A stretch of DNA of 64,000 nt from Mustelus asterias (taxonomy: Eukaryota): NCBI RefSeq assembly GCF_964213995.1, contig NW_027591885.1, forward strand, positions 1 to 64,000, read 5' to 3'. The translations under genes and the position numbers were made by a program. This document shows, one piece after another, positions 691-60,234 of this stretch. Every line of letters begins with the position of its first letter. The stretch's first letter is position 1. The notes beneath the pieces are model-generated. The model was given only the letters and a program-made list of their open reading frames with translations. It did not search any database and was not told where the DNA came from.

Positions 691-744
691 GATTTCTTCT
701 CCAGCCCGTTGTATGATTTTGTTTTTTATTTCTTTGCCTTCGAG

Positions 745-1766
745 TGAACATGCTCACAATTGTGACGCTGAAGAGCCGGAACTGTGGTCTGTCCAAATGC
801 GTCACTCGATATCTGGTGTCCATGTCATTGGGGGATCTAATGGTCGTTTATCTTGACCTGATACTGAGACATATTCCCATTGTTCATGCGGAACATTTTC
901 AATTCCTGTTGTCCATACCCGTGTGTAACATCCACGCCGTCCTGCTTTATGCAGCCACTGACTGTTCTGTCTGGTTCACTGTCACTTTCACCTTTGATCG
1001 ATTTGTGGCCATTTGCTGTGCCAAGCTGAAAAGTAAATATTGCAGTGAGAAAACGGCAGCTGTGGTTCTGGGAACAGTGACGGTGCTGAGCTGTTTAAAG
1101 AACATTTTCTGGTATTTTATGTTAACCAGTGATTATTGGCTGAAGAACATACCCTGGTTTTGTAGCTCTACATCATATGTTGACTATTCTCTGGCCTGGG
1201 TGGGAATTGTGTTCCTCCACAACATTCTGAACCCATGTGTTCCATTTGTCCTGATTTTGCTGCTCAACGTCTTCACCATCAGACAAATTTTAGTGAGCAG
1301 CAGAGCCCGCAGGAGACTCCGAGCTCATAGCAGTGGGGAGAATCCCAGAGACCCCGAGATGGAGAGTCGAAGGAAATCCATCATTTTACTGCTTTTAATA
1401 TCAGTCAATTTCATTCTGCTATGGTCAATGACCATGGTTTTTACGACTTCTGAACGGCTTTTGTGGTTGGGGTATCAGACTAAACTTTTTCCTGTTTGCT
1501 TTCGGGAATTTGGCTTCATGCTGCAGCTCCTGAGTTGCTGCACAAACACTGCAATTTACGCTGTGGCACAGACTCAGTTCAGACAGCAGATGAAAAATGT
1601 GTTGAAATTTCCTTTCACTAAAATTCTTCAATTCATTAAACTCTGCGGAAAACCCACACACACGGCCTCTCTAATTTCCTATTGGACATTCAAACTTTAT
1701 TACACAAACCATCCTCATACTGATTGGACAGATGAAACAGCACCATCAGCTCTGCTCTGCAACTGA
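745..1766 (+). CDS. GPCR gene A exon 2: class A 7TM receptor, GPR139/GPR142-like (exon 1 not found in the window, presumably upstream)
   Basis: Polypyrimidine tract plus AG at 743-744, phase 1 (g|TG AAC = VN). Motifs CGLSKCVTRYL, DL in TM2, VCNIHAVLLYAATDCSVWFTVTFTFDRFVAICC, VPFVLILLLN, DPEMESRRKSIILL and LQLLSCCTNTAIY. Open to TGA at 1764-1766. Confidence 0.9.
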
Positions 1767-19185: not shown

Positions 19186-19389
19186 NNNNNNNNNNNNNNN
19201 NNNNNNNNNNNNNNNNNNNNNNNNNNNNNNNNNNNNNNNNNNNNNNNNNNNNNNNNNNNNNNNNNNNNNNNNNNNNNNNNNNNNNNNNNNNNNNNNNNNN
19301 NNNNNNNNNNNNNNNNNNNNNNNNNNNNNNNNNNNNNNNNNNNNNNNNNNNNNNNNNNNNNNNNNNNNNNNNNNNNNNNNNNNNNNNNN
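19186..19389. other. Assembly gap (204 N)
   Basis: N run. Confidence 1.
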
Positions 19390-21526: not shown

Positions 21527-22428
21527 TTATGTTTTTGCTAATTTAGAAATAAGTGTGAAGGGATATTTCACCATATTATTTATCTGTGCTCTGAATTTAG
21601 TCTGTGTCACGGCATAAATACAGGTGTTTGTGCAGCAACTCAGGAGCTGCAGCATATATCCGATGAGCAGTACATAATATGGGATGTAAACACGCATATG
21701 TCCTACATAATAAATGCGATACCATATAAAATAAATCATATACACTGCCCATAACAGGATAAAATTACCAGAAATAGAAAAGAGTAAAATTATTGATTTC
21801 CTTCTGCTCTCCATCTCTTGGTCTCGGGAGCTGTCCCTATGGCTCTGAAGGCAAAGTCTCCTTCTTGCTCTGCTGGCTGCTAAAATGCTTCTGACGGTTA
21901 AAACATTTAGAAGCAGAATGAGAAAAAATGGCAACCCCGGCGTGAGAAGATAATGGATGATCTCAATTGTCGACCATATTATTGAATAGCTGACATCTCG
22001 ATAGGCATGGCAAAGCCAGGGACCGAGATTCAATGAATATTCATCCAATAACATGAAGTACCAGAATATATTTTTCAAACAGCACAGCACAGTCAATGTT
22101 CCCAGAATCACAGCAGCATTTCTCTCAGTGCAATAGTTGGTTTTCAGCTTGGGGCAGCAAATGGCAACATGTCGATCAAAGGTGAATGCGACAGTGAACC
22201 AGACGGAACAATCAGTTGCTGCATAAAGCAACACGGCGTGGATGTTACACACGGGAATGGATCTCAAGAAAAAGAACTCTCTCCAATACAGAATCGGTAT
22301 CTGCCTCCATACCAGATCCAGAATAACAACCAATAGATCGGCTGTTGCCATTGCGACAAGATAGCGAGTCACACTTTTGGAAAGGCCACATTTACCACGA
22401 GATAGAATCACAATTGTGATTAAGTTAA
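21527..22428 (-). CDS. GPCR gene B exon 2 (GPR139/GPR142-like)
   Basis: Acceptor cctatctctcAG at 22430-22429, phase 1 (g|TT AAC TTA = VNL). GKCGLSKSVTRYLVAMATADL, VCNIHAVLLYAATDCSVWFTVAFTFDRHVAIC, DQEMESRRKSIILL and LQLLSCCTNTCIYAVTQTKFR; TAA at 21529-21527. Confidence 0.92.
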
Positions 22429-36884: not shown

Positions 36885-37490
36885 TGTAGATAGATAGACA
36901 GACAGGCGGACAGACAGACAGTTTGACGGAAGGACAGACGGGCNNNNNNNNNNNNNNNNNNNNNNNNNNNNNNNNNNNNNNNNNNNNNNNNNNNNNNNNN
37001 NNNNNNNNNNNNNNNNNNNNNNNNNNNNNNNNNNNNNNNNNNNNNNNNNNNNNNNNNNNNNNNNNNNNNNNNNNNNNNNNNNNNNNNNNNNNNNNNNNNN
37101 NNNNNNNNNNNNNNNNNNNNNNNNNNNNNNNNNNNNNNNNNNNNNNNNNNNNNNNNNNNNNNNNNNNNNNNNNNNNNNNNNNNNNNNNNNNNNNNNNNNN
37201 NNNNNNNNNNNNNNNNNNNNNNNNNNNNNNNNNNNNNNNNNNNNNNNNNNNNNNNNNNNNNNNNNNNNNNNNNNNNNNNNNNNNNNNNNNNNNNNNNNNN
37301 NNNNNNNNNNNNNNNNNNNNNNNNNNNNNNNNNNNNNNNNNNNNNNNNNNNNNNNNNNNNNNNNNNNNNNNNNNNNNNNNNNNNNNNNNNNNNNNNNNNN
37401 NNNNNNNNNNNNNNNNNNNNNNNNNNNNNNNNNNNNNNNNNNNNNNNNNNNNNNNAGACAGGCAGACAGACATGCAGTTAGGTAGACTGT
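36885..37490. repeat. (GATA)/(GACA)n microsatellite spanning a 512-N gap (36944-37455)
   Basis: tagatagatagacagacag on the left and agacaggcagacagac on the right of the N run. Confidence 0.9.
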
Positions 37491-38597: not shown

Positions 38598-38694
38598 CAG
38601 GTACAGCAACAGCAGCGAGAACTGGATAGTAGATTTTTTGTATATTCCGAATAGAAAAAAGTATTCTTGCCACTGATTGATGATCTCTTTCCAT
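38598..38694 (-). CDS. GPCR gene B exon 1
   Basis: ataATGG start with an in-frame TGA upstream; MERDHQSVARILFSIRNIQKIYYPVLAAVAVP+G then donor GTGAGT (38597-38592). Phase 1 matches exon 2; 97+902=999 nt gives 332 aa. Confidence 0.88.
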
Positions 38695-38789
38695 TATTGT
38701 AGTCTCTTTCGCAATCTCTGTTCATCGGGTTAGTCCAGTTCATGTATGAACGTTCTCGTTGACTCTATGGAACATCACAGTGAGCTGAT

Positions 38790-38955
38790 TCCTTTAATAT
38801 ACGTTGTGAGATGTCTCTGCAGACACATCTTGACTCCATGGATACACTGATTAATTACAGCCACTGAGCAAACAGGCGGTGTTAACTCATTCTTCAAAAA
38901 TGACTGCTGAATTAGAGATCAAAATTGCACGCAAATTAAATAGGCATGAATAAAG
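38790..38955 (-). promoter_or_regulatory. Putative proximal promoter of gene B
   Basis: TTATTCAT, TAATTAAT (38857-38850), TCCATGGA (38842-38835) and TATATTAAA (38801-38793); the block is shared with the upstream region of gene C. Confidence 0.55.
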
Positions 38956-40369
38956 TTAACAGATCTCTGAATATTATCGACAAATATCTCAGCAAGCATA
39001 AATAAAATGTTAAGAGTGGTGTGACGTACAGACCATATATTTTCGTACAATTTCACGAAGACACGGTTCTTCACGCCAGAGTCAGAAAATACATTTTTAT
39101 GTCCTAAAAATCAAAATAAATGAAAAGTTTGGGACAGTTCGTACTGAGAGCGACACCTGAGTAAGATTCATCGTTCTGTTCTGCACACGCAGAAACGTCA
39201 CACTGCACTAATAGAATGAATGTCAATATATTATTCGCATGACAAGTGAAAGAGTGGTACAGATGTCACTGACATTGCAGCCCTGGATTCACATGTTCGT
39301 TCTTCACATGTATGTCCTCGCATTAACTGCATGGAAGAATCATGGAGTGTTTATATAATAATGGGTCGTGTCACCGAATGGAAATGTTGTTACAGAGACT
39401 CAAAGTTGGTGGTTGGTTCAAAGCATTGGAACAAAGCTGGAACAAAGCATTCATGGATGGAGACACATAGAGAATCTTTGCTTTCAGAAACAACACACAA
39501 GCCATAAATGTCATCTTTTCCATTAACCAGGGCACGGGTTAGGGGCAAGCTACTGCCTGGTAATTGGATGTTGCCATTTAGATGCATAGAAGGGAAATTA
39601 TTTTCCGGGATGATATATTTAAAGGAGTTACTTTCAGTATGAATGAAAAATAAATTACCTGTGCAGAACACCGCAAACATGCAGTCATTGAGCAGGGAGT
39701 AAATAGTCCCCATAAAGGGAAGGTACGTTTGGTGGCAACGTTACTAAAACCAGGAACTGTTGTTTGTTGCTTGCTGGTTTTGTGGTTCTTTGCAGATAGT
39801 TATTCAAGGATCAGTCAGATGACTGCGTCTCTGAGCACTTCCCGGCAGCACAATGCTGATGAAGTGATTCTCGTGAAAACACGGACTACAAATTTCTTCA
39901 AGCATTCGGAACTAAATATAATGAAACGTTCCAAGCGAGATCCAGCCAGGAGAAGACACAATCCATCCCTGGCCTTCACAGTGGCAGCTGCAATATCTAA
40001 GTGACACGATTGCCTTTCAGAAATGCAAATACTTCAGTAAATATGCATCAGAGAAGAATGCACATTTAACATTATTCACTGGTTCAAACAACTGACGAGT
40101 CAAATGTTGGAGTCGGGGTCAGTTTCTTATTCAAACCCACATTCTGACTGGAGAGCCTAATTAATATTCCCACAAGGGAAAGTTGCAAATTTACTTCATT
40201 TCTGGCAGGCAAAATACAATATTTTTCCATGCAGTGATAGAGAAGGAGAATCGCTGAGTAGAAAAAAAGGACATTTTTCAAAGCGATGTTCTCAGAACTC
40301 AAAGTTCCATCCTTTGTTCGAGTAAAAAGATGCAAACAAATATTTAAACGGCGGATGCAGTGGCATACC

Positions 40370-41000
40370 AGTGTTGCCACTAGAATAGCCATCCAGAGAC
40401 CCAGGCTATCTTGAAATAAATCTTAGAAACCCTACAGCACAGAAAGAGGCCATTCGGCCCATCGAGTCTGCACCGACCACAATCCCACCCAGACCCTACC
40501 CCCATATCCCTACATATTTTACCCACTAATCCCTCCAACCTACGAATCCCAGGACACTGAGGGCAATTTTAGCATGGCCAATCAACCTAACCCGCACATC
40601 TTTGGACTGTGGGAGGAAACCGGAGAAACCGGAGCAAACTCACGCAGACGCCAGGAGAATGTGCAAACTCCACGCAGACAGTAATCCAAGCCGCGAATCG
40701 AACCAAGGTCCCCGGAGCTGAGGAGCAGCAGTGCAACCCACTGTGCTACCGTGCCGCCCTGGGAGGCTCTGGGACAGTAATGCTCTGGGAACCGTTCTTC
40801 CAATCCCACCATGGTAAATGATGACATTTGAATTAAATAATAATCTGGAATTAAAAATCAAATTAGGACCATGAAAGCAATGTGTTTCAACAGTACCCTT
40901 TCGGTAAGTAAGGAAACATGCTGTCCTTACCAAGTCTACAGCAATGTTGTTGACCTTTAAATGTTGCCATGGACGCCAACATTCCATGAAGGAATAAAGT
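40370..41000 (+). mobile_element. Second-family tRNA-derived SINE interrupted by an HE1 copy
   Basis: atccagagacccagg | taatgctctggg..aatcccaccatgg..tttgaatt..aggaaacatgctgtccttacc..cagcaatgttgttgac. Confidence 0.6.
40423..40759 (-). mobile_element. HE1 SINE
   Basis: Reverse complement gggcggcacggtagcacagtgg.., B box ggttcgattcg, CR1-like tail. Confidence 0.92.
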
Positions 41001-42614
41001 AGAATAATGAAGAAAAAAGTAGCATCTGGCGAACTTAGTAAATCTAGTTTGTATCTGCCGATATGAATGGTTTCAGTAATCAAGAAAAATACACGCCCAC
41101 AACTCTGAATTAGTGCAGCATTTGTGCCATGGGGAAGTCTTCAGATCGTCGTTTGTCCAAATTTTCCTTACAAACTACTTATCTATTTACAATGTGTGTT
41201 TTCTGAAAAGTTGCATATAACACACACCGTTCCGTGTTTCCAATTGTTTGCTATATCACCAGTGAACAAAGGCAAAAGAAAGAAATCCGGCACGGGGGTG
41301 ATTCAAAGTTGCTTCAATTTACCTCCGAACTCGTTTTTCCACATGTTGGGACTTGTACCACTAGAATGACCTTTATTAAATAGTTCTCACCCTTTTTGGT
41401 GCCTGGAATGGACTGATTCTGGTATAGATCAAATTGTGGAACAACAGCAATCTCTGAGTGCTTTGTTGTGCAGTTGTTTTTATCTCATTGTGTGTCTCAA
41501 TATGTGTCCAAATTAATCATGCCCCAGTAAAGTTAAAAATGGCAAAGGTTACGCCAACACGAACAATGGGCAAAAGAGACCCATCACCTGCAGCAAGTGT
41601 TATGCCTGTTGATTTTACTAATTGTTGTAATTATACATTGGTTTATCACGTTGAAAACGTGTTAAAATAATACCACTGAAAAAAATAAAAATATTTTACT
41701 GGCCTCGTAATTAAAATTAAAGTAAACATTCAGAACAAAGGAACATTGAAGCTGAAGCAAGGAATTCGGCAGTCGAGATTTAGATCCCACTCAGGGAGGT
41801 CGTGGCAGATCATGCAGTACATCTTCGACGTTTCCCCACTCATTCCATATTCAGAGATGTCCATTTGATTTAGATTTCTAACCTTTTTATGATTTGAATA
41901 GGACGTTTGAATGACGCACCACTATCTCAGCGAAAAAGAAACATTGTCTGTACCACATTCTTAAATGGCCTGACCCTTATTCTGAGACTCTGACAGATTA
42001 TTTTGGACTCATGGACAAGGGGACGCTCTGTATGCATCCAGCATACATAGCAAAAATGTACTAAGTTTCAATAGGATCACTTCACATTGTTTAGGAATCG
42101 AAAGAGTGTTGTCCGATTTTCCTGGACCAGAGCACGAAACGGTTACAGAAGATTTCGTATTCGTGACGGGTCTACAGGTGTAAGATCCGTTTTTCACAGA
42201 AGCTGTACCCCCGTGTCCCCCCCGCCCCTCCCCCCCCCAACCCCCACCACCATGTTTAATTGTAAGACCCATGATTGGTTCAATGTAGCTTGCTTTTCCA
42301 GTTAATACTGTGGACATGACACCCATGTAATGAACTGCATTCTTCATCAGGAATAATAGCACCCAGTGAACATGAAATATGAATCACGAAACCACACACA
42401 AAACGCACCTTTGTTACACGGGGTTTCCGAAATAAATTGTAAAATAAATGTTCAGCGGGTTTGTGGGTTTAAGATTAATTTTCGTTCCGTGTAAGTACTA
42501 CAAATTATTATTTTGAATCTGGTGGATACAATTATCCTTTGATGGTGAGGAGTGTTTCAGAAAAAAATCATTATTTCTTTGAAATTAAGAATGTTATCAA
42601 GCTTATTACTATCT

Positions 42615-42725
42615 GTAATGAGAACCTGAAAGACTGGGGAAAGAACAGCATCTGCGGCAACATCTGTGAGAAGAGATACATGGTTAAAGTTTCGAGATAA
42701 TTTTCCTCTTCTTTAAAGCTGAGGA
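42615..42725 (-). mobile_element. Degenerate Penelope-like terminal repeat (second family)
   Basis: Reverse complement aagaagagg..ctcgaaactttaac..tctcacagatgttgccgcagatgctg. Confidence 0.45.
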
Positions 42726-43090
42726 GAGGGGGGACTGCGATCGGTTGCATGCAGTTGAACAATGTTGCGTTTTCTGGAGGTCCACGCTGATATGTTGCAT
42801 ACTCTTGAAATGTGATGTGCTGTATGCAACTGAAATGTGATGTGTTGAATGCAGGTGGATTGTGATGGGTTGTATGCGTTTAAATTTTGATATTAGATCA
42901 AAAAAGGTTGAGTACTTGATTCGACTGCACCCCACGTTCACCTGAGCTGAACTTTCAGATCTGAATCTCGCAATGAAAATATTTGCCTCGCGAGATCACT
43001 TGAAATGTTCACTGGGTGAATATTTTCACTGTACTCCATTGATGCTGCCCGGATACAGCGTAAAGTAAAACACAGAAACAACAATATGCC

Positions 43091-46000
43091 TGTTGTGACA
43101 ACGACAGTACTCATCAATAAGTCTAAGCGTGCGGTTTGTGGAGTACCAGATGCCGTATCGAGTGAGTGGAGACTCGCCCAATGAGGAACAGCCAGCCGGG
43201 GATTTTTAGCCTGTAGCTGTGCCCAGATCGGATTTGTAGGTCACGAGTTGAGGATTACATGGCTGTAAACTGTGGGAGCGGTCTTTTCCTTTGGGGCACA
43301 ATAAAAGGTGTTGGGGACGGCATTTGGCTGAAGTATTACATTGGTGTCGAGGAGAAAACAATGCATTTTCCTCCAGCATTCCTTGCAGACAAACTCTAAA
43401 CATCAAGAATTTATCTGGTCAGAAAAAATAATTATGCATCTTTTCGGGAAACTTGAACCCTATCACACCATTGGGGGAAGACTGGGTCCAATACACTGCA
43501 TGCATTATTTCGTCCGTGCTAACAACATTGAAGGAGACAAGAAAAGAAAACTTGACATTGCTAACAGCATGCCGGGCCCCGACTTTCAGTTTAGTAATAC
43601 GCCGAATCTCTCCTGATGCCCCAAATCAAAAAAAAATAATGAACTCGTCGGCCTGATGAAAATCCACGACAACCTGAACTCCCCTTCAATATTCCAGAGA
43701 TATTGCTTCAATATTGCTTGGGGATCCCCTGTGGAATCTGCCACTGAGTTCTTGGCCAGGTGGCAGAAACTTGTTGAACACTGCGGAATTGGATAATCTC
43801 TGAATGAAATGTTGTGGGACAGATTTGTATTTGACATAAAAGACCTAACCACTCAAAGGTCGCTCTTGGCAGAATCCAATGTGGACTTTATAAAGTCCAT
43901 TGAGGTAGCCTTGTCAATTGAACATGCCACACAAGGGGATCAGTAGTTACAAGGGGCATCAGCCAGCTATATCTTTGAGCCGGGGGTAGGCATCACATGC
44001 AAACAGTACTCAATGCAGAGCACTTGTGTCAATCAGGGATGAAAAATACCCATTCATTATCGGAATCTAAAGGCATCACTAGGTAGTCAATGCCAGCACG
44101 AAGAGTATTAAAGAACATGCTCCAAAGCGTTGCACTTGATAGCTGAATCACTGCTGCAAGCGTTGTCGAAGTGCAAAACCACGGTGATGTTTCAGAAATG
44201 GGAAATAAAAATGTGCTGCCTAAGAAGAAAGCCAAAGCTATTCTCTGTATTTAACTTACAGGTATCCCCTTTTACAGAGACAGGGACACTACAACTAAAT
44301 CGTATTATAACAACTGGGAATGGTTGAGTTACGTAAATGGTCATCTCTTGAAGATGAAGGTGGATACTGGCGTCGCAGTCTCCATTATCAGAGAACAGAC
44401 ATGTAAGCACTTCCAATCGGGGATCCAATGCCTGAGTTTGGAAGTTTTGAAGGACCAGCTAAACACCTACACGCGGGAAGATTTACAAATAAAAGGCACC
44501 ACAGTGGCCGCAGTGACATCTAGACAGCAATCAGATCGGCTGCCATTCATTGGTGTCCGGGGGAATGGACAAAGCCTGCCTGAGGTACAATTGGGTCCTG
44601 CAGATTACAGTTGTCTAACCTGCTGAAGATCTGCAGGCGAGGCATGTGGGGACTGTACGATGATATCAGGAGATACCCTGGAGCTTTTCAGGAGGGCCTG
44701 GGGAAAATAGAAAGAGTCAGGGCCAAGATCTACGTTGACACTAATACTCCACCTGGGGTATTTCAGATCTAAACCAATCCCAAAATCCAGGCGAGAGAAC
44801 GTGGAAACTGAACGAACGCGCCTTGAAGTCTTGGGTACAATAAGACCTGTGCAAATTACAGAATGGGCTTTGCCCATCCTACTGCTCTTCAGTTCGTCTT
44901 AATTAAATAACTGTCAATCGGGTATCCAAACTCGTTCTTGTACTCCATGCCCAAGATTGAAGAATTGTACGCCACGTTAACGGGTGGCAAGCTGTCCTGC
45001 AATTTGGACATGAACCACGCCTATCCTCAACTTGAATTGGACGAGTTACCCTGAAATATCTGTGACTTTCAACACACAAAAAGGACTGAACGAATATACC
45101 CGTATACCCTTCGGGATCTCAACAGTATGTGCGTGGGTCCCATCAGCGTGTGTCATCTTCCGAAGGATACTAGTGAACACCCTTCATGGGCGAGACAAAG
45201 CAGCAGTTTCCTTAGATGATTTTTAGGTCACGGGGGAATTAGAAGAGGAACAACTGCCGAACCTAGAAGAAGTATTGCAAGGTTTCCAGAGCGGGAGTAC
45301 GCTCGATGGGGAAGAAATGCGTTTTCCAAACAGCTGAAGTAACCTATTTAGGCAGCCAAGTAGATGGAAGGTGGTTACATCCAGTGGAGGATAAATTAAA
45401 AGCCATCAAGGAAACATCAACCCAACTAACAGCACGGAATTCAATACTTTTTGGAGTAAGTAAATTATTACAGAAAATGTATCCTGAATTTGGCTTCGAT
45501 GCTGCCAACTTGCATACCTTATTCCGAATATATCACAGATGGTCCTTGGAATCTCCGCAGGCAGTGGCTTCGTCTATAGTTAAACGCCAGTTACTGTCAT
45601 TAACATACGGGCCCTTTTTGACCCGAAAAGTTTGATTCTAATTTATCTTGTCACCTCTCCCCATACAGAGTTGGTGCAGGGATGTCAATTGCTGAAAAGA
45701 CAGATGGAGTCGCCCATCGTGTGTGGCTCCTGGACCTGTTGGATGCAGAATGATGATATCCTCAAATTGGGAAGGAAAAGCTGGTGGTCGTTTTTGGTAT
45801 GAATAAGTGCCACCAATGCGTCTTAGGTGAATATTTTATAGTCATCGAACATAACGCCTTACTGGACCTCTTCTAATTGTACCGCACCGCACCGTACACA
45901 ACAACATGTGTGGCTCCAACGTCGCTATTAATGGAATGTCGGTTCGTGAAAGTATGGACTTCCAATTCACAAACGTGGTGGATAGAATATTGTCCCAGAA

Positions 46001-46633
46001 GGAGAATTGAAAAAGAAACTTTGATTCGAAAAGGTCCAAAATAACTTACGCAACGGTTGACCTGATTCATTTAAGGAACTTTCAGCAGGGCCCCGCATGT
46101 ATCCCTGCAATCGTTTGGGTGAAAAAACGATCAGTATCCTAAAAGGCCAAAGTTCAGAATACCAACCGGAAGAAGCACAGAGGCCACCTCATGGTCAGGT
46201 TCTCCATGCGCGAGGCATCCCACCACTGGCCATGGAGATAGGCCTTGCCAATGACTGTCCACAGCTTAAAGGTTACTCCGAGTTCCCACTCTGGATAGTA
46301 ATGGCATGGACTCTGAAATGAGCGCTGAAGAAGTGGGCCTCCAGGCTGAAGTGGAACCTGAGCAGGATGTTACCGAGACCTCAAGGACCCCAGCAGATCA
46401 TCAGTATATATTTCTGTGCGCTTCCTAGAGTCGGAGCTTCCTTATTGAGAGAACTGAGGCTCGCAAAGTGGGGTGCATCCAGCGGGTTTTTGAAACATGT
46501 ACCTTTACCAGGAGCAGGCTTGTAGATGCCGAGGTGAGAGCTGTCTGACTATAAGCTGCAGGAGGAACAATTAACTTTGATACACAAAAAAAATGTTGGT
46601 GACGCTGAACTCGCGTTTGGCTGAATTACGACA
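43091..46633 (+). mobile_element. Ty3/Gypsy LTR retrotransposon relic with two diverged LTRs
   Basis: 5' LTR about 43091-43340 (TG..CA) then PBS-like tggtgtcgagga. gag LFGKLEPY..EDW..YF.ANNI; protease MKVDTGVAVSII; RT EYTRIPFGI/VSLDD; integrase largely deleted. 3' LTR about 46368-46633 is alignable to the 5' LTR. Confidence 0.85.
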
Positions 46634-46639
46634 GTAGCA

Positions 46640-46960
46640 TTCCAATATGTCGTTTTAAGTCTCTTTATGGCCTTGTTCCACCTAGCACTTCACTTCATTA
46701 TGCTTGCCTTCCCTATTACTGCATGCGAGCTTTTTATAATTTATGTACCAATATTCTGAATCTCTCCCTGCTGCAGGTATCTGCAGTCTTTCCTCGTTTG
46801 ATTAATATTCAGTTACTATAATCTTTCTAACAAAGTGTATAACATTACATTTTCCTACATTTCAGTACAACCTCCTGGGTTTTAACGATTCACTTACCCT
46901 GTCTATATGCCTTTGTACACTCTTTGCGCAACCCTCACTACAAGGTATCCTCACCACTTG
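46640..46960 (-). mobile_element. Degenerate CR1 RT fragment
   Basis: acattacattttcctacatt and ctgtctatatgcctttg, matching the reverse complement of the CR1 thumb region. Confidence 0.5.
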
Positions 46961-47299
46961 AATAGATATATAATTGGGAAGTGCTAATGATCAGATAGGG
47001 GTTACAGTGTGTATGTAAGCCTATTTATAACTAACAAATCAATGTTAACTTTTTTTTCTTTTTTTGAAGAGCTTGAGAAAGGGTATTACAGAGATTTGTA
47101 CCTGGGATGGATGCTAGTTGATGGAGAAATGGCAGTGATGGTGTGGGGGTGGCCATGGAGCTAGTTGCAGAAGTGGGGAAATGAGACAATGAAGCTATTG
47201 AATCGTCTATTACATAAATAAAAATGTATCAGAATCGCAGATTTGATACTGGGAAGGAAAGACAATAAAGATGTGATGGTCTGAGGAGGTGTGAGAACA

Positions 47300-49780
47300 C
47301 ACTCTACACACTCTTATGTGATATTTCGTCGAAAGCCTTCTGAAAGTCCAAATAAACAAAAACCACTGGCTTCTCTCATCATCTCCACGTTTTCGAACTC
47401 TATCTCTACTCAAACTGATCTCCTTCAATTGCTCCCTTTCACTAAACCGTGTGCTCCCAAACGTTTCTGATACTCTATTTGTGCCCTCCTTTGTGAAGAC
47501 AGAACAAACGTATGGATTCAGGTTGTCGTCTATTTCTTTGTTTCTCATTATAAATTCCCCTGATTCTATCTGTAAGGGACCTACAATTGTCTTCCCCGAA
47601 ATTTTTCTGCTCATAAACTTGTATAAATATATACAGTTTGATAAAACGTTACCTGACAAGCTCACACTCGTACTCTATTTCACAGTTCTTAACCAGTCCT
47701 TTCGTCGGTATTTGTTGAATTGTATCTGTTCACAATACAAAGAACAAAGAACAATACAGCACAGGAACAGGCCCTTCGGCCCTCCAAGCCCGCGCCGCTC
47801 CCCGGTCCAGGATTGAATCCTGAATCCAGGATTCCCGCCCAATTTTCCAGCCTATCTACATACCAATATCCTATCCACCGAGCTGTCCCCCACAGCTACG
47901 ATGCTTTGTTCATTACAACCTATTAACTCAACCCCACCCCCCGCCCCCATTCCAGACCATGTGATCTCCAGGGAGAGGGCTGCCCTGCAGGGTCTGCTGT
48001 TTTTCTTACCAATATGTCTGCCTCTCCCAGTTTCCCTTGGAAGCCATCGTTTGGCCGCCTCTCCAGTTTTATTTTTCGCCAGAGAGTAATTCGCAATTGT
48101 TGCAGTTTACAAGTGTTCTCCTTGAATGTTTGTCATTGCCTATCACCGTCACCGGTATAAGTCAGGCTTCCTAATCTATCATTGCCAACTCGTGCCTTTA
48201 ATCATTGCAGTTCATTTTTAAAGCGTATGATTTAGGAGCATATTCTCAGCATCAACTAGGTCACTCTTGATCTTATTGAAAATATCTGTCATGTTGTGGT
48301 CGCTTTTCACCAACTGTTCTCTCACAACTAGGTTACCAACTGTTCCTTTATAATTCTACAATGCACAGTCTTGGATGGTCTGTTCTTTAGTTGGCTCCTC
48401 AACATATTGGTCCAGAAAGCATCCCGTATATACTCCATTTATGCCTCTTGTACGGTATTGTGACAAATTTGATTAGCCCAATCTATATGCAGATTAACAT
48501 GACTCATAATAACAAATGTTCCGTTTGTGGATATATCTGTCATTGCCCGTTTAATGTCAGTCCCAACATCACCACAACATTTTGGGGGCTAATATACAAT
48601 ACTTCCTAAGCTTTTTCGCCCACTTATTTTTTCTTAGCTCTATCCATATATCTTTCACATTAACGGAATTAATATCCTTCCTCAGCGTGGTGTTTATTTC
48701 CACTTTAATTAGCAAAGCAAATCCAACGCCTTCACCTTTTTACGTTCCAAAATACTGAATACCCCTCGATGTTCAGTTCCCATCACCCTGTAAGCATCTC
48801 TCCGAAATCCCGAATACAGCCTACCAGTATACATCTATTTGTGCAATACTTAATCACGGTATTGTGAATGCTCCGACATTAAGACACAGCACATTTAGGC
48901 TCGTCTTTTTCACATTACTGTTGGTGTTTGCACTATTTCTCATTGAAGAACTGCTTGAATTTGCCCTTACTTTCTCTGCATATGCTATTCTCACTCCTCT
49001 TCTGTCTTTTTTGTGATTGATTTCCCCTCATCTGACTCCATGCATAGTTCGCATTCCCATAAATTTTAGACTAACTTTTCCCCAACCCCTCTAGCCAATA
49101 CTCCCCCTTGGATATCGTTCCTGACCCTGCCCAGGTATAATCTGTCCTGTTCGTAAAGGTCCCACCTCCACCAGAACTGCTGCAATTTCCACAGCAATCT
49201 GAAACACTCTCCCTCTCACTATCGCTGCAGCCATGTATTCATCCTATATATCCTGTCATTTCTACTCTGACAAGCACGTGGAACTGGTATTAATCCTGAG
49301 ATCACAGGCTTTGAAGTCCGGAATTTTAAAACTTACTTCGTAACTCCATATAATTTGCATTTAGTACCTCATCCTATTTTATCCTATCTAATTGGTACTA
49401 ATGTGTACCAGGAACACTGGTTGTTCACCTTCCCACTCTACAACGTGCTGGAACCGCCCCAAGGCATCCTTAGCCCTAGCACAAGGGAGGCAAAATATCA
49501 TCCTGAAGTCTTGGTTGCGGCCACAAAAACGCCTGTCTTTTCCCCTTACAATTGAATCCCCCATAACGATTGCATTCTCACACTTTTATTCTCCTCCCCT
49601 TTTCAGCAGAACCAACCGTGGTGCAACGAATTTGATGTTGCTGCTTTCCCCTGAAAGGTCGTTCCCTTCAACGGTATCGTTGTTTTTCAGGAGAATGGCC
49701 ACAGGACAATCCTGCACTGCCTCAGACTCTTCCTCTGCCTGCTGGTCACCAATTCCCTCACTGCCTTGGGAGTCTTAACC
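47300..49780 (-). mobile_element. CR1 relic (5' region, APE and linker), internally deleted
   Basis: KTIVGPLQIESGEFIMRNKEI..YVCSVFTKE; the endonuclease region and ORF1-like region lie further right. Confidence 0.75.
47735..47985 (-). mobile_element. Short CR1-tailed element nested in the CR1 relic
   Basis: caaagaacaaagaacaatacagcacaggaacaggcccttcggccc = reverse complement of the (ttgttct)n CR1 tail. Confidence 0.7.
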
Positions 49781-49789
49781 TCCAGTGTC

Positions 49790-50275
49790 GTCTCCTCTTG
49801 TACAGCTATTGCATTTGAAGTACTCACCTATATGTTTATGAAATGTAGTGCGGACTTCCCCTTCACCGCCCTGTGCAACATTGAGTCCCAGACTTTGAAC
49901 ATCCTCAGGGTGAAAATGTTTTTCCTCGATTGCGATTGAAATCCCCTGGCCATTCCCATAATTTATCCCCCCGGTCATGGTCCGGCTACTATGGGAAACA
50001 TTCCTTCCTATTTACTCTATCTATGCCACCCATAATTCTGTGCACCTCGATGATGTTCCTCCCAGCCTTCTCTGCTCAAAGGAAAACAATCCAGATAAGC
50101 TCGCAACACTTGAGAGTGCAAAGTCTCCTGATCACGTTCAACTTGAAACCTGTTGCAGTGCAATCGCATCCTTCTTATATTGTCGCGACCACATTTGAAA
50201 CAAATAATCTTTTGGCACTACATGCAGTAAGATCCACTGCCACAGTCTGTTACCACAAACAGACAACTTATAATG
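49790..50275 (-). mobile_element. Degenerate CR1 3' fragment
   Basis: tactctatctatgccacccataattctgtgcacctc..ccttctctgctcaaaggaaaacaatcc. Confidence 0.65.
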
Positions 50276-50279
50276 TGTG

Positions 50280-50395
50280 ATGGCACAAGGGACTCCCGAA
50301 ACCTTAAACTACCGCCCGAAGTCAACAGACATTTCCATCGTCCACCCCTCTTCCGCTCCGATTCCGTGGCGGGCGGGCCGGTAAACGTCCGGCGA
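50280..50395. mobile_element. MITE copy related to 16122-16250
   Basis: ccgcccgaagtcaacagacatttccatcgtccacc..gtggcgggcgggccggtaaa. Confidence 0.6.
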
Positions 50396-50576
50396 ATCCG
50401 ATAAAGAACAAAGTCACAACAACACAGTCCCATACCCTACTTCACAAAATCGATAAGTAACTGAATGATACTTATTATTTAACGAACAGAAATTGACAAA
50501 ATATGATCTCTGAATTATAAATTAAAACACAATGTTGAGTGAACTTTTTACCTTCTTTTCTCAATTCATGAGACCT

Positions 50577-50915
50577 CATAGAATCATAGAAACCCTACAG
50601 TGCAGAAGGAGGCCATTCGGCCCATCGAGTCTGCACCGACCACAATCCCACCCAGGCCCTACCTCCACATATTTACCCGCTAATCCCTCTAACCTACGCA
50701 TCACAGGACTCTAAGGGGCAATTTTTAACCTGGCCAATCAACCTAACCCGCACATCTTTGGACTGTGGGAGGAAACCGGAGCATCCGGAGGAAACCCACG
50801 CAGACACGAGGAGAATGTGCAAACTCCACACAGACAGTGACCCGAGCCGGGAATCGAACCCGGGACCCTGGAGCTGTGAAGCAGCAGCGCTAACCACTGT
50901 GCTACCGTGCCGCCC
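50577..50915 (-). mobile_element. HE1 SINE, well preserved copy
   Basis: Intact A box (tagcacagtggttagc), B box ggttcgattcc and (tctatgat) tail. Confidence 0.95.
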
Positions 50916-50926
50916 GTAATTTATAT

Positions 50927-51000
50927 TATAACGTATTTCATAACGTATTTTATAACGTATTGCATTTTATATTATAACGTATTTTATAACGTATTGCATT
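50927..51000. repeat. Short tandem repeat (tataacgtatt) x5
   Basis: Read directly from the sequence. Confidence 0.8.
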
Positions 51001-51789
51001 TTTTCCAACAGTAATTATTGTTAATTCCACAAACGGTTTGTTATTTAAACATTGAATTTCACTTGATGCATGGCGAAGCAATCGACTCTGTTTTTTTGTT
51101 ACTGATTTGAAGTCTCATCAGTTATCTTGCTCAGGGATCCTGGTCTCAACGCACCTCAGATTGTCCCTCAAACTTTTTGCCATTGTGCCCTAGAATTAAT
51201 CGCCCCTCTCGTTTTCCTCTACGTCGAACATTTCCACTGGTTTGGGTTAATGCACATGCATTTTCAGTCTCGGTCATCTTACTTCCACTCGATCAACTCA
51301 CTTACTATCTGCCCTCCACCCCCAAAAAGAAGCCCCACACCCCATTTTTAGATGAGCTTTGTGAATGAATGCCTGCGTTTAAGTTTGCGAGCAACCAGAC
51401 ACAGATTCAGCCTGAGTGGCGACATCGGATAGGGCAAGGGGAATGTGAATTGTGATTTTCCGTGGGAGAGGGGACGGGGGGCGGGGGGCGGGGGGACCGG
51501 GGGTCGGGGGAGGGGGGGGGGCGGGGAGTGTGGCAGATGATGGCAGGATGATGCGATGATTCAAATACGCTGATCCCGAATGTGGTTGGCTGTCCAATCT
51601 GATACAGGGAATATACCGTTTTGACTTTCAAATATCAAAGTGGTGACCATGATGTGCCGAGGGAATGTCGGGAGAAAAAAGAGAGTGCGTATTCCGTGCC
51701 ATTCGCTCGGTGCTCCGCTCGGATCAGTGATCAGCTCTCAGCTGTCGATTTGTCTCAGCAAAGCAGGTAATTTGCTACAGTCAAAACGT

Positions 51790-51990
51790 TCGTTATTCAT
51801 AACTATATTAAATAATGTTAAACTCATCGCAGACAGTCAACTGACTATCATTGGTATTGAAGCCGCGGAATCCAAAAATCAAAACAGGTTACTGGAACCA
51901 GTTTGTTTAGCGACAGAAATTAATTTAATTCTCCATGGATTCGTGATAATTATGTCTCATGGGAGGGCATCATTGTTTCAATAAAACGGG
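51790..51990 (+). promoter_or_regulatory. Putative proximal promoter of gene C
   Basis: TTATTCAT 51793, AATTAAT 51918, TCCATGGA 51932, TCTCATGGGA 51955 and AATAAAA 51980; GC/G-rich tract at 51465-51530 upstream. Confidence 0.5.
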
Positions 51991-52059
51991 AGTCACTTCT
52001 ATAAGTTATGAATTGGTAACACCATCAACAGGGAACAGTAGCTCAACTGAGAGTTATTG

Positions 52060-52384
52060 GAGGGATTGGAACAGTAGTTTGAAACATTACAATAATTGAT
52101 CTGTATCTGAGAGCAATAATTTAGAACGGCTCAGCAATGGATGAGAATCTGAGAACAATCGATTGGAATGATAGAACAATTGATGAGAATCTGGGAACAA
52201 TCGTTTGGAATGATACAGCAATGGATCAGGGTCTCAGAACAATAGATTCGAATGTTACAACGTTGGAAAGGGATTTGTTAGAGTAGCTTCAGCTGACACT
52301 GCTGGTTGAATGGGCGGATCGAGTACGCACTTTATGTTATTCAATACCTTTATTATTCTATGCTCACACTGATTGGTATTCCTG
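52060..52384 (+). pseudogene. GPCR gene C exon 1 (GPR139/142-like), disrupted; N-terminal 42-nt tandem repeats
   Basis: ATG 52137 MDENLRTIDWNDRT-IDENLGTIVWNDTA-MDQGLRTIDSNVTT-LERDLLE* (TAG 52284). A different frame reads RIEYALYVIQYLYYSMLTLIGIP+G with donor GTGAGT at 52385. Confidence 0.82.
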
Positions 52385-53870: not shown

Positions 53871-54100
53871 AAATTCATAAGCATCATTATAGGGGTAATG
53901 GAATTCACTTACAGATCTGCTGGAAAATTCGGGACTGTTTTAATTGGAGATGCTTTAGTTGAGATTTGATCGTTGTGTTCAATATCATGCGGGGTCAGAA
54001 GACATGACGTTATGGCATCCGATTCACATTTGTGGAGGGAAAGTGATGAAAATGGGGCAGTTCAAACTGCCATCTGACATTGAATATCCTTAGTCTATAT

Positions 54101-56350
54101 CAGTGGTCCCCAAAGGGTGCGGCGGGCCACATTGGTGCGGCGATGGCAATGTGGTGGGAAGATTCAAGGACAATCAAAGAAACATTTAAACATCGACAGA
54201 TATTTTTCCAAAGTGAGAGCAAAAGCATCAATGATGCTGAGGACGATCCGTGTCCACGTTGTGATCCAGAATCGCCGTTCGAACAGAGTGCTGAAGAAGA
54301 GTCGTTTAATTCTACACCAGTAGCAGGCCCAAGCAAAACTCCAAAAAAGAATGTTTGTCGACAATATATGGATAGCTATATGAGTCTCGGTTTCACATGG
54401 ACTGGAGATGGAAACGTACCTCGGCCTTTGTGTTTGATCTGTGGTGAGAAGCTTTCCCAAGCAAGATGAAAAGACATCTGTTGTCAAAACATGGAAATCT
54501 GGCAAGCAAGATGTTCAATATTTTGAAAGGCTTTTGGAGCAGCAGAAATGCCAACGATCAAATTTCGAAAAACGAATGACAGTCTCAGATAAGATGCAGA
54601 TTATATCTTACCAAGTGGCTGAATTGATTGCTCAACAGACAAAACCACATACACGAGCTGAAAAATTGATTCAGCCAACCTGCAGCTTGATTGTGAAAAC
54701 TTTGTTTGGTTTTGATGCTGAGCGAGAAGTTATGGAAATTCCTTTGTCTGGCGATACAATTCGCAGAAGAATAGTTGATAGGTCAACTAATGTTGAGAAG
54801 CATGTTTCCGAAAGTATGAAGAATTCTAAATTTGCCATTCAAGTTGATGAATCGACCGACATTAGTGGAAAAGCACAGTTGCTTGCCTATATCAGATTCA
54901 TTCACAATGACGAAATAGTCACACAGTTTCTATTTTGCAAGGAACTTGAAAAACATACCAGAGGACAAGATATTTTCCAAACCTTGCCTGAGTGTTTGGA
55001 AAAAGTTGAGATTTCATGGGAATCTTGAATTGGAATTTGTACGGATGGAGCGCCATGTATGAAAGGGAATGTGAGAGACTTGGGGGCACTCATCAAACAG
55101 AAAAATCCAGATGTAATATCAACTCACTGTTTTTTCTACAGAGAGGCATTAATCACCTTGTAGCTGATTTGTAGTTGGTTCGAGATCAGACTGTGCGCAT
55201 TGTGAACTTCATCAAAGCAAAACCACTAAAGGTGCGGTTATTTGCTCAACTCTGCAAAGACATGGAATAAAAACATCAATGCCTAATTCTGCACTCGGAG
55301 GTTCGCTGGATGTCCCCCGGAAATGTTTTAAATCGGGTGTTGGAACTGAAGAACGAATTAAGAGAGTATTTGGAACAAGAAGAGAACCCATTGTACCACC
55401 AAGTGGATGACAATGACTGGTGTGCAAATCTGGCATCTTTGGCCGATATCTTTTCCCGGTTGAATGTGCTCAGTGCCAGTATGCAAGGCCGCGATGACAA
55501 TATCCTCACAACTACAGACAAACTAACTGCATTCAAAAAAAAGCTTCAGCTCTGGCTCAGAAGAGCGGTGCGACATAACCTCGAAATGTTCCCACTGGTA
55601 AAAAGTGTTAAAACGAGCAATGAATTGTACGGCCTCATACAGGAGCATCTTGCAACACTGGTAGAAAAGATTGATCATTACTTCCCATCATTGTCGACAG
55701 AAAAATTCGACTGGGTTAAAGACCCCTTTGCGAATTTCAACTGTTCCGGTCTGACATTGGATGAGGAGGAGGAAATGACCTGTATTTCGAATGATCGCAC
55801 CTTGAAAATGAAACACAGGAGTATGCCACTGGACTCTTTTCGGACATACAACCAGAAACAGTATCCACTCATCTCTTCAAGAGCATTAGCTATTATTCTG
55901 CATTTCTCCACGACATATTGTTGTGAACAGGGATTTTCAGCTCTGACAAATATCAAAGACCAGTAAAGAGAAAGGCTTCTTTGTGTTGATGAAGAGATGA
56001 GAGTTTGTTTGTCTCAAATTAGACCATATATATATGAGATAACCTGACAAAAACAAGCTCACACCTCTCATTGAGTTTGCATGCTTACTTAAGGTTACAT
56101 ATGTAAGAGGCTCGCCTATAAGTATATTTTGGGAATGAATCATGTTTTTATGTAGCTGCATTGTTTTATACATTCTGGATGTCCCATGATCATATTATAA
56201 AGTAGTTATGTTCTATGTTATGAATCAAGCACTGCGAGGAGTTTTTTTTTGTTTCTGAATGTTTTTCTTATCAATAAAAAATTTGGTGTTGCGCGAGGAA
56301 ATTTTTATTCCAAACGTGCGGCCCAGTGAAAAAATGTTTGGGAACCACTG
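54101..56350 (+). mobile_element. hAT DNA transposon, Buster/Charlie family (ZBED5/SCAND3-like transposase), inactivated
   Basis: TIRs cagtggtccccaaa / tttgggaaccactg. RQYMDSYMSLGF..PLCLICGEKL BED finger, FAIQVDESTD, GICTDGAP, THCF..REAL, EVRW and TTYCCEQGFS; several stops and frameshifts. Confidence 0.92.
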
Positions 56351-56612: not shown

Positions 56613-56884
56613 CGAATTAAGAACAATTGGAAACTTCCACTTTGCAGAGGCGGAAAAAAGCAGCACGTGGACAGAGCAAATGACAACAATTTTAGCATCG
56701 CTGAAAATTGCATATGGAGCAAGTAGTTTGATGGATAGACATACCAGGTACCCCAACAATAGCAAGGATGGAATAGTACACGTACTGAATAATGAAAAGT
56801 GCATATTCTAACCGATGTTTTAATAATAACCCATCGTAATATGTAGAAGCATACCAAAGGTAAGACGATAAACTCTTGCCGTTT

Positions 56885-59745
56885 GAACAAACAAAGAACA
56901 AAGAACAAAACAGCACAGAAAACAGGCCCTTCTGCCCTCCAAGCCTGTGCCACTCCGTTGTCCAATCAGACCAATCGTTTGTATCCCTCCATTCCCAGGT
57001 AAATCTTAAACGATGTCGACGTGCCTGCCTCCACCACCCGACTCGACAGCGCATTCCAGGCCCCCACCACTCTCTGTGTAAAAAACATCCCTCTAATATC
57101 TGAGTTATACTTCGCCCCTCTCACCTTGAGCCCGTGACCCCTCGTGCTCGTCACTTCTGATCTGGGAAAAATCTTCCCACCGTTCACCCTATCTATCCCC
57201 TTCATAATCTTGTACACCTCTATTAGATCTCCACTCATTCTCCGTCTTTCCAGGGAGAACAAGCCCAGTTTACCCAATCTCTCCTCATAGCTAAGACCCT
57301 CCATAGCAGGCAACATCCTGGTAAACCTTCTGTGCACTCTCTCTAACGCCTCCACGTCCTTCTGGTCGTGTGGCGACCAGAACTGGACGCAGTACTCCAA
57401 ATGTGGCCTAACCAGCGTTCTAAATAGCTGCATCATCAGACTTTTATACTCTATACCCCGTCCTACAAAGGCAAGCATACCATATGCCTTCTTCACCACC
57501 TTCTCCACCCGTGTTGCCACCTTCAAGGATTTGTGGACTTGCACACCTAGGTCCCTCTGTGTTTCTATACTCTTGATGACTCTGCCATTTATTGTAAAAC
57601 TCCTTGCATTATCTCTTCCAAAATGCATCACCTCGCATTCATCCAGATTAAATTCTATCTGCCACCTCTCCGCCCAATTTTCCAGCCTATTTATATCCTG
57701 CTGTATTGCCCGACAATGCTCATCGCTATCCGCAAGTCCAGCCATCTTCGTGTCATCCGCAAACTTGCTGATAACACCAGTTACACCTTCTTCCAAATAA
57801 TTTATATATATCACAAATAGCAGAGGTCCCAGTACAGAGCCCGGCGGAACACCACTGGTCACAGACCTCCAGCCGGAAAAAGACCGTTCGGACGCTACCC
57901 TCTGTCTCCGATGGCCAAGCCAGTTCTCCACCCATCTAGCCACTTCTCCTTGTATCCCATGAGCCTTAACCTTCTAAACCAATCTGCCATGTGTGACTTT
58001 GTCAAATGCCTTCCTGAAATCCATATAGACGACATCCATGGCCCTTCCTTCCTGAGCCGTTTTTGTCACTTCTTCAAAAAACTCCACCAAATTTGTAAGG
58101 TACGACCTCCCTCTTACAAAGCCATGCGGTCTGTCACTAATCTGATTGTTCCGTTCTAAATGCACATACATCCTGTCTCTAAGAATCCTCTCCAACATCT
58201 TCCCTACCACGGACGTCAAGCTCTAATTTCCCGGGTTATCCCTGCTACCCTTCTTAAACAACGAAACCACATTCGCTATCCTCCAATCCTCAGGGACCTC
58301 ACCTGTGTCCAAAGAAGCGACAAGGTTTTCCGTCAGAGGCCCAGCAATTACATCTCTCATCTCCCTGAGCAGTCGAAGATAGATGCCATCAGGCCCTGGG
58401 GCTTTGTCAGTTTTAATGTCCCCTAAAAAACCTAACACTTCCTCCCTTTTAATGGAGATTTTCTCTAACCGGTCAACACCTCGCTCTGAGTCACTCCCGG
58501 TTAACACGTCCCTCTCCTTCGTGAATACCGATGCAAAGTATTCATTTAGGATCTCCCCTATGCCCTTGGGTTCTAAGCATAATTCCCCTCCTTTGTCGCT
58601 GAGAGGTCCGATTTTCTCCCTGACAACTCTTTTGTTCCTAATGTATGAATAGAATGCCTTAGGATTCTCCTTAATCCTGCCTGCGAAGAACATCTCGTGA
58701 CCTCTTTTTGCCCTTCTAACTCCCCGTTTGAGTTCTTTCCTACTCTCTCTGTATTCCTCCAGAGCTCCATCTGTTTTCTGTTGCCTGGAATTAACGTATG
58801 CCTCCCTTTTCATTTTTATCAGATCCTCAATTTCCCTGGTTATCCATTGCTCTCGAATCCTACCTTTTCTTTCTTTCCTTTTTGCAGGCACATGCCTATC
58901 CTGCAGCCTTATCAATTGTTCCTTAAAAGGCTACCACATGCCAGACGCGGACTTACCCTCGAACATCCTATCCCAATCAACGTCCACCAATTCCTGCCTA
59001 ATCCGGCTATAGTTAGCCTTCCGCCAATTTAGCACCCTGCCCGTAGGACAGCACGCATCCTTGTCCATTACTATCCTAAAGTTAACAGAGGTTGTGGTCA
59101 CTATTGGCCACAGGTTCCCCTACCGAAACTTTGACGACCTGACCGGGCTCATTTCCCAGAACTAGGTCCAGTATAACCCCCTCTCTAGTCGGGCTATCTA
59201 CATAATGTTCCAAAGAACCTTCCAGTATGCATTTTACAAATTCCTCCCCGTCCGGAACCCCAGCTCTAAGCACTTTCCAGTCTATACCAGGGAAAGTAAA
59301 GTCCCCCACTACAACAACTCTATATTTTCTGCACCTATCCAGAATCTCCTAACATATCTTTTGCTCCACTTCCCGTGGGCTGTTGGGTGGTCTGTAGTAC
59401 ACCCCCAGCATAGTGACTGCACCCTTCCTGTTTCTGAGTTCCACCTACAGTGACTCAGTACATGACCCCTCTAAGTTGTCTACCCTCTGCACCGCGGTAA
59501 TATGCTCCCTAACTAATATCGCTACTCCCCCACCTTTTTTAGCCCCTCCTCTGTCTCGCCTAAAACACTTATACCCCGGAATATTCAGCTGCCAGTCCTG
59601 TCCCTCTTTTAACCAAGTCTTCATCACCGCAACCACATCCAAATTCCACATAAGTATTAAGGCCCTAAGTTCATCGGTCTTAACCGTTACCCTCCTCGCA
59701 TTGAAGCAGACGCATTGACACAGACTCCAGACCTCCAGGCCCACT
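56885..59745 (-). mobile_element. CR1 LINE, nearly complete ORF2 with 3' tail, few disablements
   Basis: CVCFNAR, MKTWL, MGDF, NSDHN, KAPGPDG, MDFRKAFDKV, GSVLGPLLF, KFADDTK and RPHLEYCVQFWSP; (ttgttct)n tail. Confidence 0.95.
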
Positions 59746-60234
59746 CAGGTCATCCTTGTTGGGACATTCCAATCGTGTGTTTTCACATTCTGATCCATTG
59801 CTGTAACATTGCAGTCGTGCGTTGTCAGTTTCCGGTACGTTGTTGAAAGATTACAATCCATTATTTTCAGATTATGATCTCCCTTCTCCCTCTATCTGGA
59901 GCACTTGGTCCTTGTTAGTACCTGAGCTGGTCGATCTGCGGACACGATGGGAGAATTTATTGAAATGAATCCCTTATTAATAAAAGAAGGAAAGCTTCCA
60001 GTGGCACCGTTAAGTGCCATGGGTAATGCCATTAATTACAGTCACCAAACAAACAGATTCAGTTAATCTGTTACAATCCGAAGCTTTTTACCCGGTATAG
60101 ATGTGTTGAGTGAGGGTCGGTGATGGAAGTAATTGGGAATAGGGGAGGCCATGGCCCGAAACTGATCCAGTTAATTAATGCAGTAATGGAGAACGTCACA
60201 GTCATACGTATGGTTATTGAAAACGCGTATGAAA

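Follow-up and report, generated by a model that had tools for sequence, protein, structure and literature searches.

We analysed a 64,000-nt stretch of the Mustelus asterias genome (contig NW_027591885.1, positions 1 to 64,000, hereafter the window) identifying a block of 42 nt upstream of three first exons of G protein-coupled receptor (GPCR) genes, here named B, C and D. Probably (roughly 0.78) the block serves a large family of two-exon class A GPCR genes in sharks and rays as a conserved proximal promoter module. It is present at 3/3 first exons with fixed inner spacing and is conserved above the level of neutral DNA. Promoter function, the factor classes, the start site and co-regulation of the genes we infer from the DNA. 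The module had been proposed for B and C in a first-pass annotation of the window; as far as sequence can tell it is real and conserved, and better supported than that annotation showed, while the odorant-receptor grammar ascribed to it (homeodomain, EBF and TATA-like sites) fits only partly.

Three copies of the block and their conservation

The 42-mers of B and C lie where they had been placed (B, 38832..38873, minus strand, with GTTTG at 38873, AATTAAT at 38856-38850 and CCATGG at 38841-38836; C, 51901..51942, plus strand, with AATTAAT at 51918-51924 and CCATGG at 51933-51938) and are identical at 29/42 positions, shifted registers giving only 7-12. A third copy, overlooked in the first-pass annotation, precedes gene D (60013..60054, minus strand, AATTAAT at 60037-60031 and CCATGG at 60022-60017). 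In a scan of both strands it scores 28/42 against B and 29/42 against C, the next-best site of the window reaching 24. It matches 24 of the 29 positions common to B and C, where the next-best site matches 19 and 2.5e-5 such sites are expected; this comparison constitutes the independent test of the pattern, the spaced pattern itself having been drawn from B, C and D. That skeleton, GTTTG-N12-AATTAAT-N8-CCATGG, occurs at 3/3 first exons and at no other site on either strand of the 64 kb, and together with single letters beyond it the invariant columns across the three genes amount to 24/42. From block start to start position there are 179 nt in B, 193 nt in D and 194 nt in C, measured in the last to a degenerate first repeat (236 nt to the next ATG). 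For the best ungapped 42-mer between 500-nt upstream regions, none of 300 dinucleotide shuffles of any pair reached the observed score; among 300 random pairs of window DNA, 3, 1 and 1 did so for the three gene pairs, the high-scoring cases probably being repeats. Copies are confined to the DNA before first exons, with no dispersed transposon-like copies in the 64-kb window. A shared conserved module before paralogous first exons thus stands for all three in the window and, in addition, for a close paralog of C. Upstream of the D block we also noted a loose second AATTAA...CCATGG pair with 15-nt spacing (60181-60150, minus strand), possibly due to chance, and some 3.9 kb upstream of the B block a 25-nt unit in three copies (42806-42877), of which no counterpart was found before C or D.

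Three-way invariance in the block (24/42) equals that of coding positions 1 and 2 (22/38) and is 2-3.5 times that of third positions (5/19), the intron (43/267) and the upstream and downstream flanks (30/128 and 41/140). The comparison with intronic DNA, proposed earlier as a means of refuting the module, hence came out in its favour. The best 42-column window among 60 shuffled alignments held 16 invariant columns. No indel is present over 38 nt of the block, while the flanks contain many. The flanks had been described as unalignable by eye and are not wholly so, since three features line up colinearly in B, C and D: a TTA at -12, the start-codon context and, at +73 to +80, a TATA-like/GG-A-TCA block.

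These data bear on whether the block is simply what has decayed least of an upstream region copied by duplication. Paralogs retain 42-51% identity at neutral sites (the proxies being third positions, 8-9/19, and fourfold sites, 38/75), the whole region is weakly colinear and the block was chosen as its best segment. In an indel-free neutral simulation, the P of 24 invariant columns in the best window was 0.002 when pairwise identity was set to 45%, 0.036 at 50% and 0.30 at 55%; as P rises with the assumed neutral identity, the test of selection is good but rate-dependent. The invariance described above and the lack of indels nevertheless argue against such a neutral remnant, as does a close paralog of C. 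We compared C with four DNA or probable-DNA sequencing runs from three organisms, and this paralog, at 85-88% identity, was present in 4/4 runs and all three organisms. Among the rows listed, with 146 others beyond them, it differs from C at 2/42 block positions (51911 and 51927, spacer) as against nine over the 58 nt that follow, and no gap is listed within the block; the list is probably complete for this stretch, since nearby rows with weaker support are included. The paralog changes 0/24 invariant sites (hypergeometric p 0.044, 19 differences), and its differences at 51900 and 51911 shift C towards the letters of B and D. More distant paralogs did not align on the C promoter at 80% likeness, which is a sensitivity limit. 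Judged by these alignments the module is conserved above neutral DNA at p values that are modest, and a neutral remnant appears very improbable.

Alternatively the block might lie within the 5′ untranslated region and act on RNA or translation, for example with the ATG of CCATGG as an upstream start codon. This ATG, with G at +4, is invariant. However the open stretches it would start, 24, 3 and 42 codons long, fall in two frames and encode no common peptide, there is no conserved structure, and the TATA-like block lies downstream. No Rfam match to the block was found, its consensus fold is negligible (-1.96 kcal/mol) and the N-termini of 283 homologous proteins contain no translated promoter DNA. 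We consider this alternative hardly credible.

Elements of the module and the odorant-receptor grammar

The preferred reading, a proximal promoter, envisages a block inherited by each gene copy through duplication and retained by selection. It would constitute a rigid composite site, with a forkhead-like TGTTTGY at its start, a homeodomain palindrome AATTAAT at 17 nt and a second palindrome, CCATGG, at 32 nt from block start, bound jointly by cooperating factors. A looser TATA-like block 73-80 nt downstream would set transcription start, and all paralogs would be licensed in the same cell lineage. One cooperative complex with a looser core promoter is suggested by the fixed inner spacing combined with a variable distance to the TATA-like block.

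GTTTG, overlooked in the first-pass annotation, is invariant in B, C and D, and with the leading T present in B, D and the paralog it becomes TGTTTGY, which we take to be a forkhead-like site (frequency computed here 0.0013 per position). AATTAAT, reported as invariant, is so in 3/3 genes, each with one mismatch to the LIM-homeodomain consensus TTAATTAAT, for which 0.049 matches at that level are expected per 65 nt. The longer palindrome TCCATGGA had also been called invariant, but only its CCATGG is constant since D reads CCCATGGC; CCATGG is assigned to no factor class. The TATA-like box was correctly recognised, a TATA-like block followed by GG-A-TCA being colinear in 3/3 genes (B, 38786..38801, minus strand, ~75 nt after block start; C, 51981..51995, plus strand, with GGGAGTCA; D, 59966..59983, minus strand, with GGGATTCA), and paralog differences at 51981, 51985 and 51987 move the C copy towards the D sequence. 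A POU-type site TTATTCAT does not hold as a conserved element. It is found at 38953 in B and 51793 in C, at 80 and 108 nt respectively; the spacing thus differs, the paralog of C reads TTATTAAT, and D contains the TATTC core alone. The TATTC core aligns in all three genes, and an 8-mer in common is found in 29% of random 150-nt pairs. RFX and POU4F readings were dropped by eye for want of a good half-site and for mismatched flanks.

The odorant-receptor grammar, Lhx2/Emx2, EBF and TATA-like sites driving the family in olfactory neurons, finds its best evidence in the LIM-homeodomain match of AATTAAT, the TATA-like block that follows and gene C. The LIM-homeodomain consensus and the O/E (Olf-1/EBF) consensus TCCCYNGRGA are those given for mammalian odorant-receptor promoters in PMC3247239, the former in its Table 1. 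The EBF-like site claimed for C (51955..51964, plus strand) stands with one mismatch to the latter, and the close paralog, which differs there at two letters, has two mismatches with the TCCC core retained; as a site of the module it is weak, with two mismatches in B that fall inside the core and at least three in D. Sites with up to two mismatches occur at a background of 0.37 per 65 nt, the level of B. Measured against the EBF consensus of the first-pass annotation, TCCCNNGGGA, mismatches number one in C, two in D and three in B. C contains two O/E-like sites with one mismatch each, where 0.033 are expected per 65 nt, and one of the two overlaps CCATGG. In a variant of the same grammar the invariant T..CCATGG, 5 nt from the homeodomain site, would itself serve as a degenerate EBF site. 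On the opposite strand CCATGG has one mismatch to the O/E consensus in C, two in B and three in D, but the core-breaking letter is invariant, and variation falls on two of the C positions in the consensus. GTTTG, the partner of the homeodomain site that is best conserved, is not an O/E site, and the word 'forkhead' is absent from the main text of PMC3247239 and PMC3247230. According to the available text of PMC10116579, the catshark nose is apparently microvillous and odorant receptors are not expressed in it. By consensus matching, an EBF reading of these sites is unlikely, the forkhead-like site is the better-conserved partner of the homeodomain site, and the full olfactory grammar is likewise unlikely.

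The receptor family and its genes in the window

With B exon 2 as query, 2411 of 3661 candidates matched at E <=1e-10. The best 120 matches, 54-70% identical, all came from sharks and rays under the names probable or putative GPR139 and included by hand count ~50 separate clusters (at 90% identity) of proteins from one species; matches beyond these 120 may include non-shark proteins. An exhaustive search showed identity falling from ~40% to <=33% at the edge of the group, the ten edge proteins comprising six from sharks or rays, three from a salamander, a coelacanth and a teleost, and one without a name. In a quick tree, which carried long-branch warnings and left out human GPR139, bony-vertebrate 'probable GPR139' proteins join the shark group with a support of 100; identity to the window proteins is 38-76% for shark and ray members and 32-33% for these relatives. 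Since the best solved match, human GPR139 (E 1.2e-11), scores only 47.6 bits, 'GPR139' is a nearest-neighbour label. Family members are also labelled 'vasopressin V2 receptor-like' or 'uncharacterized' (P0200, P0162), so that name-based counts are too low. The family signature consists of a 7tm_1 exon 2 and a first exon ending in YYP-x5-GVP followed by a phase-1 intron, whose position was taken from the window genes. The first-exon ending could be parsed cleanly in 61/120 public models, and many models appear to be without the true first exon. The homolog P0001 duplicates its C-terminal part covering transmembrane segments 6 and 7, and P0002 and P0004 are comparably long, possibly through partial duplications or gene-model fusions. 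A metagenome collection scanned with the promoter pattern and with the exon 1 ending gave 0 matches each, which suggests only that such shark DNA is absent there.

The family displays several traits of chemoreceptor repertoires, being large and clustered, undergoing birth and death and having a variable ligand-facing surface. Among 118 sequences, divided into segments by eye, mean entropy was 1.39 bits in extracellular and 0.53 bits in intracellular parts. Hypervariable extracellular parts are as expected of a repertoire that diversifies its ligands, and this is the sole basis on which the analysis suggests the word 'sensory'. The cell type predicted is a chemosensory or chemosensory-like epithelial cell, at a little under even odds, the remainder falling to gut endocrine, immune or neural signalling cells. 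A real promoter could instead act in a lineage that is not sensory (gut endocrine, immune or brain cells), with receptors that sense metabolites or peptides, a reading that competes with the preferred one on cell type only. Endodermal promoters commonly contain forkhead plus homeodomain sites, and amino acids are sensed in gut/islet and brain by GPR142 and GPR139; both facts count for a non-sensory lineage, as does human GPR139 being the closest solved relative. The ~50 clusters in one species, the broken copies and the hypervariable extracellular parts are however more typical of repertoires for environmental ligands, with the proviso that immune receptor families are likewise numerous and variable. 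Should the family turn out not to be sensory, the module would be a conserved promoter of an ordinary kind.

A number of points weigh against a family-wide promoter module. Beyond the simulation at 55% identity and the restriction of the paralog differences to the rows listed, the contrast between block and flank in the paralog has p 0.03-0.09. The promoters compared are three in the window and one close paralog, and in two other organisms C and this paralog were the only ones seen, so that 'family-wide' is extrapolation. Two of the three first exons, C and D, are broken, and in gene C the forkhead-like site is without its first T. The factors are named by consensus matching, and the 118 sequences behind the entropy values are related, so their p value overstates the evidence.

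The intact gene is B. Its coding exon 1 (38598..38694, minus strand) is of a short type with 32 codons and a phase-1 GT donor, its ending being that of 61 homologs among the 120 parsed, and joined to exon 2 (21527..22428, minus strand, 7tm_1) by a splice deduced from DNA alone it gives an open frame of 332 aa. Proteins with short- and long-type first exons score alike against B exon 2 (means of 1037 vs 1024, not decisive). Exon 1 of C (52095..52384, plus strand) is of the long type, with N-terminal repeats of 21/42 nt; its degenerate first repeat at 52095 has ATT where B and D have ATG, the next ATG being at 52137. A TAG at 52284 disrupts it, as does a frameshift near 52293-52314, leaving B as the only intact gene of the two in the first-pass annotation. 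Compared with the close paralog and with contigs of other species it is shorter by 8 nt; two same-species contigs span the site without a gap, so the deletion is real and, the other sequences being 8 letters longer, looks recent. From its sequence, C is a pseudogene. In D, exon 1 is split into a 5′ part with ATG at 59861 and N-terminal repeats (59750..59861, minus strand) and a 3′ part with the family motif and GT donor at its end (56745..56883, minus strand), separated by an insertion of the long interspersed nuclear element (LINE) type (56890..59745, minus strand, boundaries approximate) with a reverse transcriptase domain (RVT_1, E 1.3e-10).

The window thus contains three first exons, B (38694-38598, minus strand), C (52095/52137-52384, plus strand) and D (59861-56745, minus strand), and two second exons, A (745-1766, plus strand) and B (22428-21527, minus strand), both Pfam 7tm_1. 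A tblastn search of the 64 kb with B exon 2 found no third, and B's is the sole second exon on the minus strand. The first exons of C and D point towards one another, and the DNA separating them contains no second exon. These first exons may represent interleaved genes or orphan exons, or D may formerly have been an alternative first exon of B; given three first and two second exons, some first exons may be alternative promoters of a shared receptor body. N gaps at 19186-19389 and 36944-37455 could conceal sequence. Between C and D, decayed DNA-transposon-like frames occupy 54050-56068 (plus strand), with a weak DUF4371 match (E 2.4e-4) below cut-off, and an imperfect 41-nt palindrome lies at 55993-56068. 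No first exon or promoter of gene A was found within the 64-kb window. A GT-rich array of a 38-nt tandem unit (129-642) lies immediately upstream of its exon 2 (745..1766, plus strand, 7tm_1), the presumed acceptor (730-752, plus strand) has GAG instead of YAG, and the frame extends ~40 codons beyond the usual family end (1640-1766, plus strand). The long-type N-terminal repeats (52069-52261 in the window) encode glycosylation sequons, at least one of which is present in 37/47 long-type homologs. Contig depth over the C repeats (52118-52241) was very high in all four runs and piled up nowhere else, which suggests many copies and variable repeat number.

No description of a GPR139-like expansion or of the promoter module was found in the literature searched, in which few subscription papers were covered and key supplements fell outside; term searches in the available text of PMC11979771, PMC8455134, PMC6504862, PMC10620051, PMC13100897, PMC11886862 and 10.1101/2025.06.08.657570 returned no account of either. 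Cartilaginous fishes are described as having few olfactory receptors (PMC10116579) and few GPCRs (PMC8455134), with which the very large shark and ray 'probable GPR139' family in public annotation contrasts. A short specific promoter signature provides a way to locate every first exon and to sort live from dead genes, and a route to the transcription factors and the cell type, so that what the family senses, and in which place, becomes directly testable. That hundreds of GPR139-like receptors form an undescribed chemoreceptor repertoire of sharks and rays, under a forkhead-like, homeodomain and CCATGG code of its own and not Lhx2/EBF, we regard as doubtful. If true, the repertoire would outnumber the known olfactory families of these animals, and identical promoters competing for one activator complex could lead to a one-receptor-per-cell choice of independent origin in vertebrates.

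Comparison with known promoters and receptor families

GPR139/GPR142 and bony-vertebrate orphans named GPR210A/B are described in the available text of PMC6504862. Salamander, coelacanth and teleost have 'probable GPR139' proteins of low identity that fall with the shark family; unlike these relatives, at 32-33% identity to the window proteins, shark and ray members are very numerous. The available text of PMC10116579 describes the catshark nose as expressing mainly V2R/OlfC receptors in microvillous neurons. A top-50 list from a catshark brain and olfactory library in PMC11979771 contains no GPCR, which carries little weight for individually rare members.

Of the O/E, homeodomain and TATA sites over-represented in odorant-receptor promoters, O/E is the most enriched according to the portion of PMC3247239 available. 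The shark genes resemble those of mammals in being clustered class A GPCR genes with homeodomain and TATA-like sites within ~200 nt of the start (PMC3247239, same portion). They differ in that O/E sites are weak or absent in 2/3 promoters, in having GTTTG and CCATGG as invariant partners at fixed spacing, and in that the module stands directly before the first coding exon. The Greek Island motif, in the available part of PMC5608512, places an Lhx2 site next to an Ebf site; inserting 2 nt impairs it, and its enrichment concerns enhancers, not promoters. The shark module is likewise a composite that would have to keep its spacing to function, but its elements lie 8-12 nt apart with one module per gene; Greek Island adjacency was not found, the nearest O/E-like register lying 5 nt after AATTAAT with an invariant core mismatch.

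V1R subfamilies share alignable promoters, the homology being found within subfamilies or a locus (PMC3247230, as far as the accessible text goes). These promoters are the closest in kind, since the promoter region of paralogous receptors is alignable by descent, although the shark block joins short- and long-type first exons whose third positions are 42-47% identical, and the motifs differ. The module resembles V1R promoters in kind and odorant-receptor promoters in its homeodomain and TATA-like parts, a likeness that falls short of membership in either class.

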